NCBI GenBank assembly: GCA_963729605.1
Contig: CAVSNY010000003.1
Location: forward strand, 320,001 to 384,000
Direction: 5' to 3'
DNA: 64,000 nt
Origin: an uncultured Gammaproteobacteria bacterium
GTDB taxonomy: Bacteria; Pseudomonadota; Gammaproteobacteria; DRLM01
In this document: in pieces, positions 42,169-48,987 of the stretch
How positions within the stretch are numbered: position 1 is the first letter of the stretch
How the letters are laid out: each line of letters starts with the position of its first letter
The notes under the pieces: model-generated
What the model saw: only the letters and a program-made list of their open reading frames with translations
Told to the model about the DNA's origin: nothing
Databases searched by the model: none
Made by a program: the position numbers and the translations under genes

Positions 42169-43203
42169 CTAAGAAGACTTAGGTAAACGCTTGAACTCCG
42201 TCCTGGCGAGTCCGTATTTTTTGATGAGCTTGCCCAGGGCGCTGCGTTCCTTGCCGGAAAGGTCGGCGGCCAGGCTGACATTGCCATGAGTTTCACTCAG
42301 CAAAGAGGAGAGGTAGGATTTTTCGAATTGGGCGATGGCGCGGGCCTTGGCGGTCTGAAAATCGCCGAGTGTGATCCGGCTGAGACTGCGCTCGGCCTTG
42401 CGGCGATCGTACACCGGTTTAGTCTCATCGAGACTAAACCGGATCAACGGATCATCGGACACCAGGAATTGCCGGTGGATGAGGTTCTCGAGTTCGCGCA
42501 CATTGCCCGGCCAACTATAACGTAGAAAGGCGCTGATGTTATCGGGATGCAATGAGCGTGGTGCTTGTTGGTATTCCTGGGCGAAGCGCGCGATGAAGTT
42601 TTCCGCGAGATGCAGCACATCGTCGCCGCGTTCCCGCAACGGCGGCAAATCCAGACATACCAGATTCAATCTAAATAACAGATCTTCGCGGAAGAGGCCC
42701 TTGTTCACCATGCCTCGCAGGTCGCGGTTGCTCGCGGTGATGATCCGCACGTCGGCGTGGCGGATGCGCCCGCCCACCGGGCGATAGGCGCGATCTTCCA
42801 AAAAGCGCAGCAACACGACCTGCGCCTTGGGACTCATGACTTCCACCTCGTCGAGAAGCAGGGTGCCGCCCTCGGCCTGCGCGATGATGCCGGCCCGCGC
42901 GACCTTGGCATCAGTGAATGCGCCGCGTTCGCAACCGAACAGTTCGCTTTCGAGCAAACCATCGGCGATGGCGCCGCAATTGATGGGAATGAAGGGTTGA
43001 TCGCTGCGCGCGCTAGAATAATGAATGGCGCGCGCCACCAATTCTTTACCGGTCCCCGTCTCGCCTTGGATCAACAAGGTGGCGTCGCGGGTGGCCAGTT
43101 TTTTAATCAGAGACAACACGTGTAAAAACGCCGGGGAGCACCCCACCAGCTGAGTATGCGTGCACTTTTCCGCGGGATTATTGAAATGAGACCCGAGCGC
43201 CAT
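42169..43203 (-). CDS. sigma54-dependent activator lacking an N-terminal sensor domain
   Basis: AAA domain begins within about 20 aa; GETGTGKE, GAFTDA, WPGNVREL, Fis HTH. Confidence 0.92.
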   Translation of the reverse strand: MALGSHFNNPAEKCTHTQLVGCSPAFLHVLSLIKKLATRDATLLIQGETGTGKELVARAIHYSSARSDQPFIPINCGAIADGLLESELFGCERGAFTDAKVARAGIIAQAEGGTLLLDEVEVMSPKAQVVLLRFLEDRAYRPVGGRIRHADVRIITASNRDLRGMVNKGLFREDLLFRLNLVCLDLPPLRERGDDVLHLAENFIARFAQEYQQAPRSLHPDNISAFLRYSWPGNVRELENLIHRQFLVSDDPLIRFSLDETKPVYDRRKAERSLSRITLGDFQTAKARAIAQFEKSYLSSLLSETHGNVSLAADLSGKERSALGKLIKKYGLARTEFKRLPKSS

Positions 43204-43787: not shown

Positions 43788-44139
43788 TGGTTGTTCGTGC
43801 TACTTAAATTAAGAGATTAAATGGGACGGCTATGTACTTCAAAACTTTTTAAGCATGAAAAACGATTGTAAGCGTCACGTTATTCATTATGAGCAGTGGG
43901 ATGCTAAATCACCTTTTAAATATTATCCATCACCAATTTCATTATTGCGCGATATTCCCGATTCCATTTCAAATGCGGAGGATATGGACTGAATAAACCC
44001 AAGCCATTTTTTGCCGCCTTTAATCGTAACGAACGATTGTTTGGCGCCATCTTGGTGCGCCGGGGTTGCATATCGGCTTTGTCCCGGTTGGGAACGTACA
44101 AAAATCCGCTCTTGTCTGGCCTTTGGGGGTCCATCCTAT

Positions 44140-44167
44140 TATGCGCATAATCATTACGGTGGTTGAA
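44140..44167 (+). other. Degenerate dif-like site (left junction of the integrated element)
   Basis: TATGCGCATAA-TCATTA-CGGTGGTTGAA; shares TGCGCATAATCATTA with 45956-45970. Confidence 0.8.
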
Positions 44168-44520
44168 CTCGGCATGGTCATATTGCCCCCCTTGTGAGCA
44201 AAAAATAAAGGTTTTCGCAATGAAAAAAGCCTGTGCCTGCCCCAAAAGCGGTTTTGCAGGCGCGGGCTGACCTTGTAGAACACCCCTCGGCAGATGCCGC
44301 GCCGCCGCCGCTGCGGTAATTCGAGGCGTGGCAGGAAGAGTTAACAGCTTCGCTCCGCTACGCTCACCGGAGCGCCTTCGTCGCGATTGAATACCCACTG
44401 CCGTGGCAGGACACGAACGGCGCGGGTACGGTGGCTCGTGCCTCGCCATCCGGATCCGCGCCGCTGCGGCTACCCGTATCTCGGATCCTGATGCGACGGC
44501 TGTTTTTAACGATGCGGACC

Positions 44521-45108
44521 TCATACCACGTCATCCAGCGGTTGAGTGCATCGAAAGAAATCGTTGATCTCAAGGGACGGGTTATGCGTCATGTCATCCG
44601 GCCAGTCCTCGGGATACTCACCCAGGCGCTCGATGACCACCCGCCAGTCCCCCATGAACTCGATGCTAGCCACAATCGCCTGGGTGCCCACCGGCCAAAA
44701 GGCCCAAAAGGCCTCCTCCGGCGGTCCCCAGGGCGCGACCACCCGAAACTCGGCATGCAAAAGGCGCATGATGCGCCAGGGTTCCTTGGCGAGCAGATCC
44801 ACCAATTCGGAATGCGACGACACGCCAAACCACGCTTGAGACTGGGTGGGGACAGGCCCTTGCAACGGCACCGCAACCCCGGCGGCCTTGAGAATGGCGA
44901 GATGCTGAGGCCAGAGGGCAGGGGAGACCCGTTTACGGGCCTCCGCCCAACCCAGGGCGTTGGCAAGACACCACGTACCGTAAGCCCCACCCGCGAGCTC
45001 CGCCGGATCGGCCAACAGAGGGGCACCCACCGACGGCGAGAACACGGCGACCTGACACGCCTGGATCAGTCCAGCCGCAAAGACCCCTGAAATAAGATGG
45101 TCATTCAT
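44521..45108 (-). CDS. Hypothetical protein with a segment resembling the C-terminus of gene II/X-family Rep proteins
   Basis: GGAGG RBS; AYGTWCLANALGWAEARKRVS..W..HLAILKAAG. Confidence 0.6.
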   Translation of the reverse strand: MNDHLISGVFAAGLIQACQVAVFSPSVGAPLLADPAELAGGAYGTWCLANALGWAEARKRVSPALWPQHLAILKAAGVAVPLQGPVPTQSQAWFGVSSHSELVDLLAKEPWRIMRLLHAEFRVVAPWGPPEEAFWAFWPVGTQAIVASIEFMGDWRVVIERLGEYPEDWPDDMTHNPSLEINDFFRCTQPLDDVV

Positions 45109-45527
45109 GGCTCAGACCTCCCCGATTGTGGTGGTGAGAATCAGGGCGAAAACCCGAAAGTGAGCCACCATGGCTCAAGAGTCCACTGGTTATAGTATGT
45201 GGACTCTCGTCATGCACCACGTCGGTGCAAGACGAAAAAGTGGGTACTTGCTCATGGCTCAGACCTCCCCGATTTGGGATGAAAAAGTCCCACCCGTGAG
45301 ACAAAGTGGGGGTTGTTACAGGGGACCCCCACTTAGCCGCGGCGATCACAAAGCGACCTTCATGCCAAGCTTCGGACTGGGTGCGTACTGACCCTTGAAA
45401 GGGGGAGGTGGCGGGATGCTTATTCATGGTTCAGCCCTCCCCGATGGTGGTGGTGAGTGCCACCCATGGCACTTAGTGCGGGTGTTACTGTTACCCGCAC
45501 ACCCCCGGCGATCACAAAGCGGCCTTC
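45103..45527 (-). repeat. Three tandem modules: origin-like hairpin pair plus repeated RBS/ATG
   Basis: TCATGGCTCAGACCTCCCCGATT at 45105 and 45252, variant at 45424; hairpin pairs at 45161-45207, 45287-45334, 45456-45500. Confidence 0.85.
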
Positions 45528-45916
45528 TTGCGTTGAAGCCTGTCCTGATTCCATTCGAGCTCCGCCTGGCCGAGCTGGTGGCGATAGTCGCGGATGAGCT
45601 GGTACAGGAAGGGCAACACCTGGATATCGCCCGGGGCGAGCCCACCCTTGGCGAAGCCCGGCGGGAACAAGTAGCCGTTGTGCACCTCCCAGCCGTCCCA
45701 GCCTGGCCAGGGCACATAGCCGGCCTGAATAGCCAGCAGTCGGAGCGCCGTGGGATTCACCGGCCGGTCGCGACCCCAGCGCCGGTAAGTCTGCTTGGCG
45801 ACCAGACAGAGGGCCGCCGCTTGCACGGTGCTGAGCCCGGCCAGCGTCTGCAAGGGCCGCGGGGTGGTCAAATTGCCCTGATAACCTGCTTGAAGCAACT
45901 CGGTTAACTCCCTCAT
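45512..45916 (-). CDS. HTH + DUF3653-like protein (XafT-like Xer activation factor)
   Basis: GLSTVQAAALCLVAKQTYRRW HTH then WPGWDGW...GYLFPPG; lies 37 nt from the dif-type site. Confidence 0.75.
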   Translation of the reverse strand: MRELTELLQAGYQGNLTTPRPLQTLAGLSTVQAAALCLVAKQTYRRWGRDRPVNPTALRLLAIQAGYVPWPGWDGWEVHNGYLFPPGFAKGGLAPGDIQVLPFLYQLIRDYRHQLGQAELEWNQDRLQRKKAAL

Positions 45917-45953
45917 GAGGTAGGCCCTTTATCGGATTTTGGCCCCCTCGCAT

Positions 45954-45981
45954 AGTGCGCATAATCATTATTATGTTAAAT
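45954..45981 (+). other. dif-type XerC/XerD recombination site
   Basis: AGTGCGCATAA-TCATTA-TTATGTTAAAT versus E. coli GGTGCGCATAA-TGTATA-TTATGTTAAAT. Confidence 0.92.
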
Positions 45982-46123
45982 TATGGAAGGGCCCAAGGTA
46001 ACAAAAGGTTTCTCCCACGAATTTTTCCTGCCCCACCACCATCGCGGAGCACCATGATTTCGCGGACAGCAATCGTCTGCTCGGACCTGGAATCATTCGC
46101 CGAAGCCAGCCGTGATCATGGAC

Positions 46124-46260
46124 CTAGTCCACTGGGTATTCCATACGCACATAGCGATGAAACGTCGAATGCGGCCATTCGCGCATTCGTTGTACCCATC
46201 CATGTTTCACGGGGGTGTAATGGATGTAGTTCACGCATCGCCCCAAGTCCGCTTCGGCGC
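46124..46260 (-). pseudogene. C-terminal remnant of a REP-associated tyrosine transposase (RAYT)
   Basis: VNYIHYTPVKHGWVQRMREWPHSTFHRYVR; GTAG REP at about 46315-46348. Confidence 0.8.
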
Positions 46261-46314
46261 GGACCGGCGCGGTGTTCCCACAGGCCATATTCGCCTTTTC
46301 ACTACGGCGTTTAC

Positions 46315-46348
46315 ATTCGGCGGATCGCGTTGCACGCATCTGCCCTAC
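46315..46348 (-). repeat. GTAG-family REP
   Basis: GTAGGGCAGATGCGTGCAACGCGATCCGCCG. Confidence 0.65.
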
Positions 46349-46529
46349 GGCCCTTGGCCTCCCATGATCGCGTCATAAAGGAGTTTCCTTTTTAAGAACA
46401 TTGCCTTCTGTCAAATCAAAAAGCATCTCAAAAAGTTTTTCAGAATCCAATTCAGTAGAAAAAATTTCCAACCACAAGCCATCATGCCCCTGAACCGCCC
46501 CGTGTTTTGCGGAGGCTGTTTGGTTTAAG

Positions 46530-47381
46530 TCATGCTGCAATCGCAGCATGACGGCGGTATTGCCTGTAGTAGTTTGCCTCAGCTTCTGCTGGAGGGATAT
46601 ACCCCAGAGGCTCTAATAGCCGGTGGTGGTTAAACCACGAGACCCATTCCAGGGTCGCCAGCTCCACGGATTCCCGGGTTTTCCAGGGTCCCCGACGATG
46701 GATCAGCTCGGCCTTGTACAGCCCGTTGATCGTCTCGGCCAATGCGTTATCGTAGCTGTCGCCCTTGCTGCCGACCGAAGGCTCGATGCCGGCCTCGGCC
46801 AGTCGCTCGGTGTAGCGGATCGAGACGTATTGCGAGCCCCTGTCGCTGTGATGGATCAGGGCATCCTCTGGTTCGGGCTGCCGGGCGTACAGAGCTTGCT
46901 CCAGTGCGTCGAGCACGAAGTCCGTGGCCATGGTGCGGCTGACCCGCCAACCGACGATGCGCCGGGCGAAGACATCAATGACGAAGGCCACATACAGCCA
47001 GCCCTGCCAGGTCGACACATACGTGAAATCCGACACCCAGAGCTGGTTGGGCCTGTCCGCCTTGAACTGTCGATTGACCCGGTCCAGCGGGCGTGGCGCC
47101 GAGTGGTCAGGCACGGTGGTGCGAACCGCCTTGCCACGGCGCACACCCTGCAGGCCCAGGCGCTTCATCAGACGCTCGACCGTACAACGGGCCACCTCGA
47201 TGCCCTCGCGGTTCAGCTGCCGCCAGACTTTGTCGGCGCCGTACACCTGCAGGTGGGTGTGCCAGACACGCTGAATATGCGACATCAATACCTCATCGCG
47301 CTTGGCCCGGGCGCTGCGCAGATCCGGATCGCGCCGCCGGGCCGCATGGCGCCGGTAGGCCGATGGGGCAACCTGCAACAC
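46530..47381 (-). CDS. IS3 OrfB (DDE integrase core)
   Basis: WVSDFTYV, HHSDRGSQY, DNALAETING. Confidence 0.95.
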   Translation of the reverse strand: MLQVAPSAYRRHAARRRDPDLRSARAKRDEVLMSHIQRVWHTHLQVYGADKVWRQLNREGIEVARCTVERLMKRLGLQGVRRGKAVRTTVPDHSAPRPLDRVNRQFKADRPNQLWVSDFTYVSTWQGWLYVAFVIDVFARRIVGWRVSRTMATDFVLDALEQALYARQPEPEDALIHHSDRGSQYVSIRYTERLAEAGIEPSVGSKGDSYDNALAETINGLYKAELIHRRGPWKTRESVELATLEWVSWFNHHRLLEPLGYIPPAEAEANYYRQYRRHAAIAA

Positions 47382-47434: not shown

Positions 47435-47758
47435 TTACGACTTCAGTTTGCGGTCGAGCTCCGCCTGTGCGAAAAAAGCGCTGGCGGTACGCAGTATCTC
47501 ATTGGCGCGCCGCAACTCCTTGTTCTCGCGCTCCAGCTCCTTGATGCGCTGTGTCTCGGACGTGGTCGTGCCAGGACGCGCTCCGGCATCGGCCTCCGTA
47601 CGCTTAACCCACTCCAGCAGCGTCCCGGGTACACAGCCAATCTTCGGGGCGATCGACTCCACGGCCATCCACAACGACGGGTATTCCCCGCGATGCTCCT
47701 GCACCATTCGAACCGCACGTTCACGGACTTCAGGTGAAAACTTGTTCGACTTTTTCAT
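47435..47758 (-). CDS. IS3 OrfA
   Basis: [28 protein letters not shown]; TTTTTTC frameshift window. Confidence 0.95.
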
Positions 47759-48063: not shown

Positions 48064-48987
48064 ATGAAGCTTAAACGAATCGGTATTGATCTGGCAAAGA
48101 GCGTATTTCAGGCGCATGGCGTAGATAGTCATGAGCACGTCATGTTGAAGAAAAAGTTGAAACGTCATGAGGTGCTGAATTGTTTTCGCCAGATCGAACC
48201 CTGCGTGGTTGCGATGGAGGCTTGTGGCAGCGCCCACTACTGGGCTCGGGAGCTTGAGAAGCTCGGCCATCAGGCAAAACTGATTGCCCCACAATTTGTT
48301 AAGCCCTATGTGAAGAGTGGCAAAAACGACGCCAATGATGCCGAGGCTATCTGCGAGGCGGCCAGCCGTCCCGCCATGCGCTATGTTGCAGTGAAAACTG
48401 CCGAGCAACAGGCCGGACAGGCCTTGCATCGAGTCAGGAGCCGATTGGTCAAGGCACGCACCGCGCTGGAGGATGGCGAGAACGAGCTGCCGGGACCGAT
48501 GCGAGAACTGCTCGCTCAACTGTCAGAAGAGCTTGAGCAGAAAGATGTCCACATTGCCCTGCTGGATCGGCAGATCAAAAATCAGTGCGCTCAAGATGAG
48601 CGCATCAGACGCCTGATGGCGCTCGAAGGTGTCGGCCCCATCAGCGCCAGCGCGATAGTCTCAGCCATCGGTGATGCCCGCCAGTTCAAGAGTGGCCGGG
48701 ATCTGGCCGCCTGGTTGGGGCTGGTTCCCAGTCAACACTCCAGTGGTGGCAAGGAGCGATTGGGGGCGATCTCAAAGCGCGGCGACACATACCTGCGCAC
48801 CTTGTTGATTCATGGAGCACGCGCGGTGATCAGCCGCTGCGAAAAGAAAGAGGATCGTAAGAGCCAATGGCTCAAAGGAATCATGGCGAGGCGCAACAAG
48901 AATATCGCCACGGTAGCGCTTGCCAATAAAAACGCCCGTGTTATCTGGGCAGTTCTCAGTCGCGGTGAAAATTATCAGCCGGCCTGA
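48064..48987 (+). CDS. IS110-family transposase, probably with an in-frame internal deletion
   Basis: IGIDLAK, MEAC, KNDANDAEAI, GLVPSQHSSGG, SKRGD.YLR. Confidence 0.93.
   Translation: MKLKRIGIDLAKSVFQAHGVDSHEHVMLKKKLKRHEVLNCFRQIEPCVVAMEACGSAHYWARELEKLGHQAKLIAPQFVKPYVKSGKNDANDAEAICEAASRPAMRYVAVKTAEQQAGQALHRVRSRLVKARTALEDGENELPGPMRELLAQLSEELEQKDVHIALLDRQIKNQCAQDERIRRLMALEGVGPISASAIVSAIGDARQFKSGRDLAAWLGLVPSQHSSGGKERLGAISKRGDTYLRTLLIHGARAVISRCEKKEDRKSQWLKGIMARRNKNIATVALANKNARVIWAVLSRGENYQPA

Follow-up and report, generated by a model that had tools for sequence, protein, structure and literature searches.

A 1.8-kb Rep-less element at the single dif site of an uncultured gammaproteobacterium, probably a helper-dependent satellite of the TLC type

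RS1, the satellite of CTX-phi, and the Ff miniphages, which are defective interfering genomes, arose from filamentous phages by deletion; the cis-acting signals for replication and packaging are retained, and virions come from a helper. The Rep of RS1 (RstA) is also retained, and the miniphages are not integrative. TLC-phi measures several kb and encodes its own Cri replication protein. A 64,000-nucleotide stretch from an uncultured gammaproteobacterium (contig CAVSNY010000003.1, positions 320,001 to 384,000; the window, in what follows) contains, between two dif-like sites at 44140-44167 and 45954-45981, an 1814-bp segment with a gene resembling xafT of TLC. The segment is probably a Rep-less, helper-dependent integrative mobile element that exploits Xer (IMEX) of the TLC type, present as one unit at the single dif of its host. 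In the accessible text of the respective sources, the TLC gene VC1465 is XafT (PMC6744903), 8 bp of the TLC XerD arm deviate (PMC9226527), the orientation of the xafT-type gene relative to dif varies by subclass (PMC6744903), and IMEXs with XafT-like factors beside dif are already known as widespread (PMC6744903; PMC12715192).

As in TLC-phi, integration was at dif, the attP combined a conserved XerC arm and a host-matching spacer with a degenerate XerD arm, a gene for a protein of HTH (helix-turn-helix) plus DUF3653 type stood beside the XerC arm, and integrase and virion genes were absent. The XerC arm AGTGCGCATAA was identical to that at the junction of TLC-Kn1. Unlike TLC-phi, the element was only 1.8 kb long, its only Rep-like part was a module resembling a Rep C-terminus in its second gene (ORF2, where ORF stands for open reading frame), and its host was an environmental gammaproteobacterium with the dif spacer TCATTA. 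The trans-acting gene kept here would be an integration factor, which sets the element apart from RS1 and the miniphages.

The right site (45954..45981, + strand), attR and the host's functional dif, read AGTGCGCATAA-TCATTA-TTATGTTAAAT, with an element-derived XerC arm and a canonical XerD arm. The left site (44140..44167, + strand), a hybrid of attL type, read TATGCGCATAA-TCATTA-CGGTGGTTGAA, with a chromosomal XerC arm and the degenerate XerD arm of the element, which differed from TTATGTTAAAT at 7 of 11 positions. Repeat analysis of the window returned the two as a direct repeat with a start-to-start spacing of 1814 bp, the same XerC-arm core and the same spacer. The first-pass annotation, made from the window's letters, had described a canonical-arm dif and a direct-repeat partner with an identical spacer and a degenerate XerD arm, and both descriptions were borne out. 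The left XerC arm started TAT.., the chromosomal type also seen in the empty dif of a same-genus genome (TATACGCATAA, locus L008), and the right arm started AGT.., as predicted for attL and attR of an element that brings its own XerC arm.

The right site alone had 0 mismatches to both arms over the 7 contigs scanned of the 3.48-Mb genome, the runners-up carrying 5 mismatches. It lay at position 365954 of contig C3, about 10 kb from the maximum of cumulative skew between G and C (GC skew) on the same contig (376367). Because it was the only perfect-arm site and stood 10 kb from the skew switch, the right site is the primary, sole chromosomal dif, at the terminus. The genome encodes XerD (386.6 bits) and XerC (370.7 bits), each above the curated NCBIfam cut-off. 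The unusual spacer TCATTA is native to the lineage, and the secondary dif considered in the earlier proposal was ruled out by genome-wide uniqueness, by the skew position and by an empty-site contig with TCATTA. Spacers of dif among related lineages (L008, L020, L024-L060) were TCATTA, TGTTTA, TGTATA, TGTGTA, TATATA, TGGGTA and TGTAGA, and in 15 of 17 bounded elements the spacer of the partner site equalled that of the adjacent dif. The terminus is a sink for mobile DNA: an IS3-family pair (46530-47381 and 47435-47758, - strand) and an IS110-family transposase gene (48064-48987) lay between dif and the skew maximum.

Public sequencing runs X1, X2, X3 and X12 were searched as assembled contigs, with at most 0.25 of the sampled words in any run. 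A 494-nt contig of X3 consisted of window positions 43899-44128, 12 other letters and positions 45956-46134, with flanks 97-98% identical to the window (7 differences over 230 nt on one side, 4 over 179 nt on the other). The contig, from a close relative, lacked the element and had just one dif, whose spacer was TCATTA. As this contig joins 44128 to 45956 through one dif, the element is bounded exactly by the two sites, and the lineage's own spacer is TCATTA; the island boundaries read from the window alone were thereby upheld. A contig of X1 also lacked the element, running from 44151 to 46178 across 91 other letters, and X1 additionally held low-depth pieces 100% identical to the element. 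X1 is possibly the source of the window itself and hence non-independent; X3 is from a different study. Close relatives thus differ in whether they carry the element, the empty site being clean, and the 1814-bp segment is a precise insertion.

Searches of 3 genomes of the same genus did not find the segment, and 40 relatives had no match of any length to it. In G001, one of the same genus, homology of the left flank ended at about 43941 of the window, and a bare dif, TATACGCATAA-TGTTTA-TTATGTTAAAT, lay within about 35 nt of the end of that conserved flank. The next 198 bp or so (43942-44139) had no homology in the same-genus genome and were present in the empty-site relative of X3. They contained ATTGCGCGATA, a decayed word resembling a XerC arm, and may be the scar of an older IMEX. 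Compositional foreignness was ruled out, with 57-65% G+C in the element against 61% in the genome and AT-rich sequence in the flanks only.

It could be asked whether the left site arose fortuitously or by segmental duplication, with ordinary chromosome between the two sites. Half-sites do occur by chance: the 15-mer common to both sites, TGCGCATAATCATTA, occurred with up to 2 mismatches at 5 sites genome-wide, two of which were the left and right sites themselves. Its exact copies were confined to these two places in the window and in the 3,475,565-bp genome, and at up to 3 mismatches the window held 6 sites against 1.21 expected (0 of 100 shuffles gave 6). With relatives lacking exactly the segment between the sites, and with homologous genes standing at dif in 32 of 37 loci of other organisms, chance or a non-mobile duplication was considered very improbable.

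The gene beside the XerC arm (45512..45916, - strand) encodes a predicted protein of 134 aa with an XRE-type HTH, a DUF3653-like motif (PWPGWDGWEVHNGYLFPPG) and a long C-terminal helix. It started 38 bp from the XerC arm of the right site and pointed away from that arm. The AlphaFold2 (AF2) model of the protein (predicted local distance difference test, pLDDT, 83.1) comprised the HTH, a beta-hairpin at WEVHNGYLF and the C-terminal helix. A profile search of 1.84 billion representatives returned 853 relatives at E ≤ 0.001. Precomputed annotation placed PF12375 on 0 of 33 homologues, with PF01381 on 2 and PF13384 on 3. PF12375 matched 9 of 27 aligned close family members at E ≤ 10 (best 1.1e-4), and 10 of the 39 members of a distant set at E ≤ 0.01 (best 2.3e-8). 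The distant set comprised the query and 38 of the 150 listed relatives (3 from mid-list and 35 from the more distant third), mostly of 100-190 aa and matching both profile halves.

The alignment of the family, A1, matched G159, a protein that passes PF12375 with 39.9 bits (hhalign probability 95.5%, E 1.6e-8). It also matched the VC1465-like protein of TLC-Kn1 (probability 95.5%, E 1.4e-8), over 70 columns spanning the HTH and the GW motif. With tblastn against 50,697 phage records, only the TLC-Kn1 gene labeled 'similar to VC1465' (36.8% similarity over 60 residues) and a CTXphi record matched (E 2e-3). No A1 relative was found among IMG/VR viral contigs, and a PDB sequence search with A1 gave nothing below E 0.18. 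The PHROG labels phrog_6106 (function unknown) and phrog_1668 ('tail assembly protein') matched in the HTH region only (E of about 3e-5), and the label was not used. A complex predicted between the XafT-like family and the XerD of the host scored 0.00 ('no answer'), which counts neither way. By sequence comparison the DUF3653 relationship of the protein is remote, visible at family and profile level only. Of the HTH+DUF3653-like ORF claimed beside dif, the position and the link by family and profile stood, and the direct match to Pfam or PF12375 did not.

Related loci shared the arrangement. With a dif-like site defined as a XerD arm with up to 3 mismatches, such a site lay 22-472 bp upstream of the xafT-like gene, oriented as here, in 32 of 37 related genome loci. 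The 5 exceptions were a 528-bp contig, a locus with dif in the opposite orientation and three loci with degenerate or shifted arms (two of them inside arrays). In 17 of 35 loci, a partner site that shared the XerC core but was degenerate in its XerD arm occurred 614-5722 bp away, nearly always with an identical spacer. Sibling elements ranged from 0.6 to 5.7 kb, and many of the related records were of Chromatiaceae type, going by record names. The layout of two genes with open frames recurred in L024, L026, L044 and G021 at protein identities of 32-60%, and was found in at least five diverged elements.

The smallest siblings held the xafT-like gene only. In G008, of the host's family, a dif array (L020:308-1530) contained a 744-bp element and a 451-bp remnant, each with only a xafT-like ORF (102 and 67 aa). 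The dif of this array, TGTGCGCATAA-TGTATA-TTATGTTAAAT at 1503, shared its spacer with the bounding sites, which had degenerate XerD arms. The ORF of the 744-bp element matched A1 (hhalign probability 97.6%, E 4.2e-12). In L056, a 614-bp unit between two degenerate sites held only the xafT-like gene. No double hairpin of the kind described below was detected by motif scan in these elements of 614-744 bp, which fit a xafT-like gene whose job is integration. At the other end, L030 (1518-6569) and L051 (5921-10976) each carried, at dif, a 2.5-kb unit consisting of xafT-like gene, hairpin and Cri-type Rep in two tandem copies; the repeat period was 2512 bp in the former and 2514 bp in the latter. 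The DUF3653 phages and IMEXs in the accessible text of the literature likewise have a terminal DUF3653-family gene beside a dif-like site, tandem arrays and subclass-specific orientation. Those described are whole phages or unspecified IMEXs, not one- or two-gene elements of 0.6-1.8 kb, and the protein family found here falls below the Pfam threshold.

Directly after the stop codon of the xafT-like gene stood a double hairpin (copy 1, 45447..45504, - strand) made of the stem GTGCGGG/CCCGCAC with a loop ending in GTAACA, the linker TAAGT and the hairpin GTGCCA-TGGG-TGGCAC. A second copy (45279..45336, - strand) had the stem GTGGGGG/CCCCCAC with a loop ending in TGTAACA, the linker TTTGT and TCTCAC-GGG-TGGGA. 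The motif was a 7-bp G+C stem with a loop ending in GTAACA, a TTTGT-like linker and a 5-6-bp hairpin with a loop of YGGG type. In an alignment of 20 instances, 12 of 13 pairs changed on both sides (covaried), helix 1 of that alignment having been selected for pairing; in helix 2, which was unselected, all 6 pairs covaried. Pairing was found in 93.8% of cells, against 72.5% in shuffles and 35-52% with the partner slid. In an unselected count over the same loci, a perfect 7-bp stem occurred at 16 of 21 GTA[AG]CA words just after the gene and at 6 of 131 elsewhere. Folding as single-stranded DNA was more stable than in shuffles for copy 1 (z -3.36) and copy 2 (z -2.50), and also for an inverted repeat, GAGTCCAC-N12-GTGGACTC, at 45179..45206 (z -3.87), which lies upstream of ORF2 and was identical in sequence in L070.

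In G021, the stretch homologous to copy 1 was 88% identical, against 68% for the xafT-like gene. In Rep-bearing siblings the hairpin abutted the start codon of a rolling-circle Rep of Cri/G2P type. The second copy here was created by a tandem duplication of about 166-172 bp (one unit at 45339..45506; repeat families D1 and D3), which also repeated a Shine-Dalgarno sequence with its ATG. A variant about 95% identical in run X2 skipped from 45339 to 45506, and L070 was likewise single-copy. Duplicated origin regions are known from miniphages, a parallel to the two hairpin copies here and in L024.

ORF2 (195 aa, 44521..45108, - strand) had a helical N-domain with a Rep-C-terminal-like module, an SH3-like beta-barrel C-domain and no nuclease domain. 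It matched nothing in Pfam or PHROG, nor, with tblastn, any of the 50,697 phage records. Five homologues besides itself were found. Homologues stood in the same position in the 1.3-1.5-kb elements of L024, L026 and L044, and in L027 and G021. Within residues 16-79, approximately, a module of some 40-60 residues matched the non-catalytic C-terminal region of Rep from larger siblings, with hhalign probabilities of 95.9% (E 5.8e-9) against Rep of L030 and 94.1% (E 1.2e-7) against Rep of L061; Rep of L030 is itself Phage_CRI/G2P (E 1.5e-13 over residues 7-225). For the AF2 model (mean pLDDT 79.9), the best match in a VIA-wide fold search was FeoA, an SH3-like fold, over residues 113-195 with a middling Z of 6.0. 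Foldseek against PDB returned nothing at E ≤ 0.001; WYL-type regulators (DriD, PafBC) at E of about 0.02 are a weak lead. The related copy L070 was about 84% identical from the repeat region through ORF2 into most of the 353-bp tail beyond it. Since both this second gene and the double hairpin are conserved, the element does not qualify as gene-poor junk.

No family of recombinases or integrases was detected in the ORFs of the element by Pfam scan. Profile searches detected no Pfam-detectable Rep in the element, no Phage_CRI in element or genome and no Zot anywhere in the genome, and 1.8 kb leaves no room for morphogenesis genes, in agreement with the absence of Rep and morphogenesis genes proposed in the first-pass annotation. 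A sibling was observed together with a complete phage gene set. The metagenome contig L061 (1-6128) ran from the 3' part of a mini-element through an attP-type site with a degenerate XerD arm into a full inovirus. In the mini-element part, an N-terminal piece of Rep ran into an ORF2-like gene and its tail, at 94.6% identity to L024. The phage part began with a xafT-like gene and hairpin (96.5% identical to L024), followed by a full-length Cri Rep and by three genes named by reading the sequence and not by family search: a gV-like one of small size, a gIII-like one and one for a Zot-like ATPase. The contig stopped before the far end of the phage. Mini-elements can therefore sit in tandem with XafT-bearing filamentous phages. 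L024 kept the first Rep codons between its two hairpin copies, which together with the Rep fragment of L061 indicates that the mini-elements derive from such phages by internal deletion.

Two groups of results weigh against a mobile, helper-dependent IMEX of the TLC type, one concerning the state of the element and the other its 134-aa protein. In the first group, no helper phage was found in the 94.5%-complete host genome when Phage_CRI and Zot were searched. The internal 166-bp duplication in this copy and a frameshift between the two domains of ORF2 in L070 are both compatible with decay. The hairpin was found near the xafT-like gene in only 15 of 46 loci, and the selection of helix 1 for pairing detracts from the covariation. 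No circle junction was seen in contigs of X1, X2, X3 and X12, which as assembled contigs are uninformative on excision; of the two junctions that the first-pass annotation had suggested seeking in reads, the empty site alone was recovered.

Several of these observations also fit a dead remnant, that is, a XafT-bearing filamentous prophage that underwent internal deletion and became fixed and immobile at dif, its ORFs open only through recency. So do the lack of Rep, Zot and coat genes in the element and of Phage_CRI and Zot in the genome, the spurious ORF generated by the duplication, and the Rep-start fragments retained beside the hairpin in L024 and L061, which point to an origin by deletion. 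A remnant accords less well with the recurrence of the open two-gene layout in at least five diverged elements, and with ratios of nonsynonymous to synonymous substitution (dN/dS) for ORF2 against L070 of 0.11 in the N-domain and 0.46 in the C-domain, which rest on only 8 and 26 substitutions. Both att sites were intact with identical spacers, close relatives differed by presence or absence with a clean empty site, and a sibling mini-element stood in tandem with a complete phage, as expected of a satellite. On balance, a dead remnant was judged unlikely.

The second group concerns the xafT-like gene. Its protein matched 0 Pfam families at E ≤ 1, and a PF12375 search of the whole genome gave no match at this ORF. 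A fold search of the AF2 model against BFVD returned generic XRE-type HTH proteins only. Comparison of A1 with G391, a DUF3653-only, PSB15-like protein, was not significant (hhalign probability 0.7%, E 0.087), so both significant profile matches may owe much to the shared HTH. The xafT gene of TLC-Kn1 is transcribed toward the XerC arm and the gene here away from it. Finally, according to the accessible text of a preprint (10.1101/2024.03.19.585677), a filamentous phage of Xanthomonas has a DUF3653 protein that attaches to the packaging signal and that integration does not require; DUF3653 alone does not, then, imply Xer activation.

The preprint's protein, PSB15 of phage phiLf-UK, suggests another role for the 134-aa protein, as a packaging-signal-binding or regulatory factor acting on the hairpin, with integration proceeding XerC-first (CTX/VGJ type) and no activation of XerD. 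In the accessible text, a hairpin in the packaging signal is bound by PSB15 through its DUF3653 domain, which integration can do without (10.1101/2024.03.19.585677). PSB15 shares with the present system a DUF3653-type beta-hairpin motif (PW.G[FW]...G.L..P.G), the context of an integrative filamentous phage and a nearby DNA hairpin. The conserved hairpin right beside the xafT-like gene and the lack of a direct PF12375 match, with only an HTH from fold search, are consistent with such a role. PSB15 differs in having no HTH and in binding membrane and thioredoxin, and HTH and DUF3653 are separate ORFs in the Xanthomonas phages of the accessible text (10.1101/2024.03.19.585677), whereas here the HTH and the DUF3653-like motif were fused as in XafT. 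The nearest phage-borne relative was the VC1465-like gene of TLC, the att sites resembled those of TLC in the degeneracy of the XerD arm and the full homology of the spacer, and solo-gene elements of 614-744 bp were flanked by dif-type sites even with no hairpin found by scan. The XafT role was favored by the fusion to an HTH, by att sites like those of TLC and by the existence of solo-gene elements, and a purely PSB15-like role was rated improbable. The 134-aa protein could also act on the hairpin instead of, or besides, XerD.

The TLC-type IMEX preferred here, which had been proposed from the window and agrees with the attP-type arms, the XafT-like gene found by profile and the relatives with empty sites, would work as follows, by homology with TLC. 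Its circular form would carry the attP AGTGCGCATAA-TCATTA-CGGTGGTTGAA, in which a good XerC arm and a degenerate XerD arm enclose the same spacer as in the host. Host XerC and XerD would recombine attP with dif, and the XafT-like protein probably takes the place of FtsK and, like XafT in TLC, activates or recruits XerD; the order of the strand exchanges, XerD-first and independent of FtsK, would be carried over from the same system. As the spacers are identical, both strand exchanges, and hence also excision, would be possible. The element would originate as a deletion-derived satellite of XafT-bearing filamentous phages, and would integrate on its own and need the Rep and coat of a helper phage for replication and spread. 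The hairpin would serve as a cis-acting origin, packaging signal or both, through which mobilization would proceed.

More tentatively, and with less than even probability, the mini-elements may form an undescribed class of hyper-reduced satellites that combine a Xer module, an origin or packaging hairpin and an ORF2 diverting the helper. If so, no smaller phage satellites would be known than these of 1.3-1.8 kb and their versions of 0.6-0.75 kb that contain the xafT-like gene only, and the Xer integration module (attP plus XafT-like gene) would be self-sufficient. The hairpin would be read by the Cri Rep of the helper and perhaps also by the DUF3653-like domain, and ORF2 would dock on the origin or on the helper Rep and so divert replication to the satellite.

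The remaining features were minor. The 353-bp tail (44168..44520) had no convincing ORF and would lie upstream of attP and the xafT-like gene in the predicted circle. Ten nucleotides inside the degenerate XerD arm, an imperfect palindrome, GGTCATATTGCCC (44177..44189), is a candidate operator or accessory site. A similar box stood at the same position in L026, L027, L044 and L024 (as GGGCAATATGCCC), and a second group of elements (L029-L051) had a CTGTCAAT box in place of the near-palindrome. Rfam gave no match in the element at E ≤ 1, no sigma-70 promoter was picked up by scanning, and sites resembling terminators were as frequent as expected by chance. Two overlapping ORFs of 182 and 170 aa were rejected as genes, being alternative frames of the xafT-like gene with no family matches. 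An ORF of 108 aa (45101-45427) was rejected as well: it matched no family and spanned the 166-bp duplication with no counterpart in relatives, and is a by-product of that duplication.

Among the neighbors, a gene at 42169-43203 encodes a sigma-54 activator of 344 aa with AAA+ and Fis-type HTH domains and no recognizable N-terminal sensor or receiver domain. Beyond dif, a truncated ORF (46124-46339, - strand, within 46086-46354) resembled, by sequence reading, the C-terminus of a transposase of the tyrosine type associated with repetitive extragenic palindromes, with no Pfam match. A repeat of about 50 bp (46305-46354) occurred on many contigs of relatives and had very high summed depth in the runs.

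New here are the reduction to two genes without Rep, the Rep-derived ORF2, the hairpin with its covariation and a protein family below the Pfam threshold. In the accessible text of the literature, supplements being outside its scope, neither xafT elements of this two-gene, Rep-less kind nor the hairpin were found described. Because the family lies below the Pfam DUF3653 threshold, XafT screens based on hidden Markov models would miss it.

IMEXs with XafT-like factors, known mainly from Vibrio and Xanthomonas pathogens, are here extended to environmental gammaproteobacteria. The spacer of dif can differ between close lineages (TCATTA, TGTTTA, TGTATA), and that of the element matches its host's. 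The extent of reduction suggests that attP plus one small gene is sufficient to occupy dif; engineered mini-TLC constructs of attP plus xafT exist and match the one-gene elements. Satellites of filamentous phages may exploit their helpers through signals in cis and in trans, for which the hairpin and the Rep-derived ORF2 are candidates open to testing.

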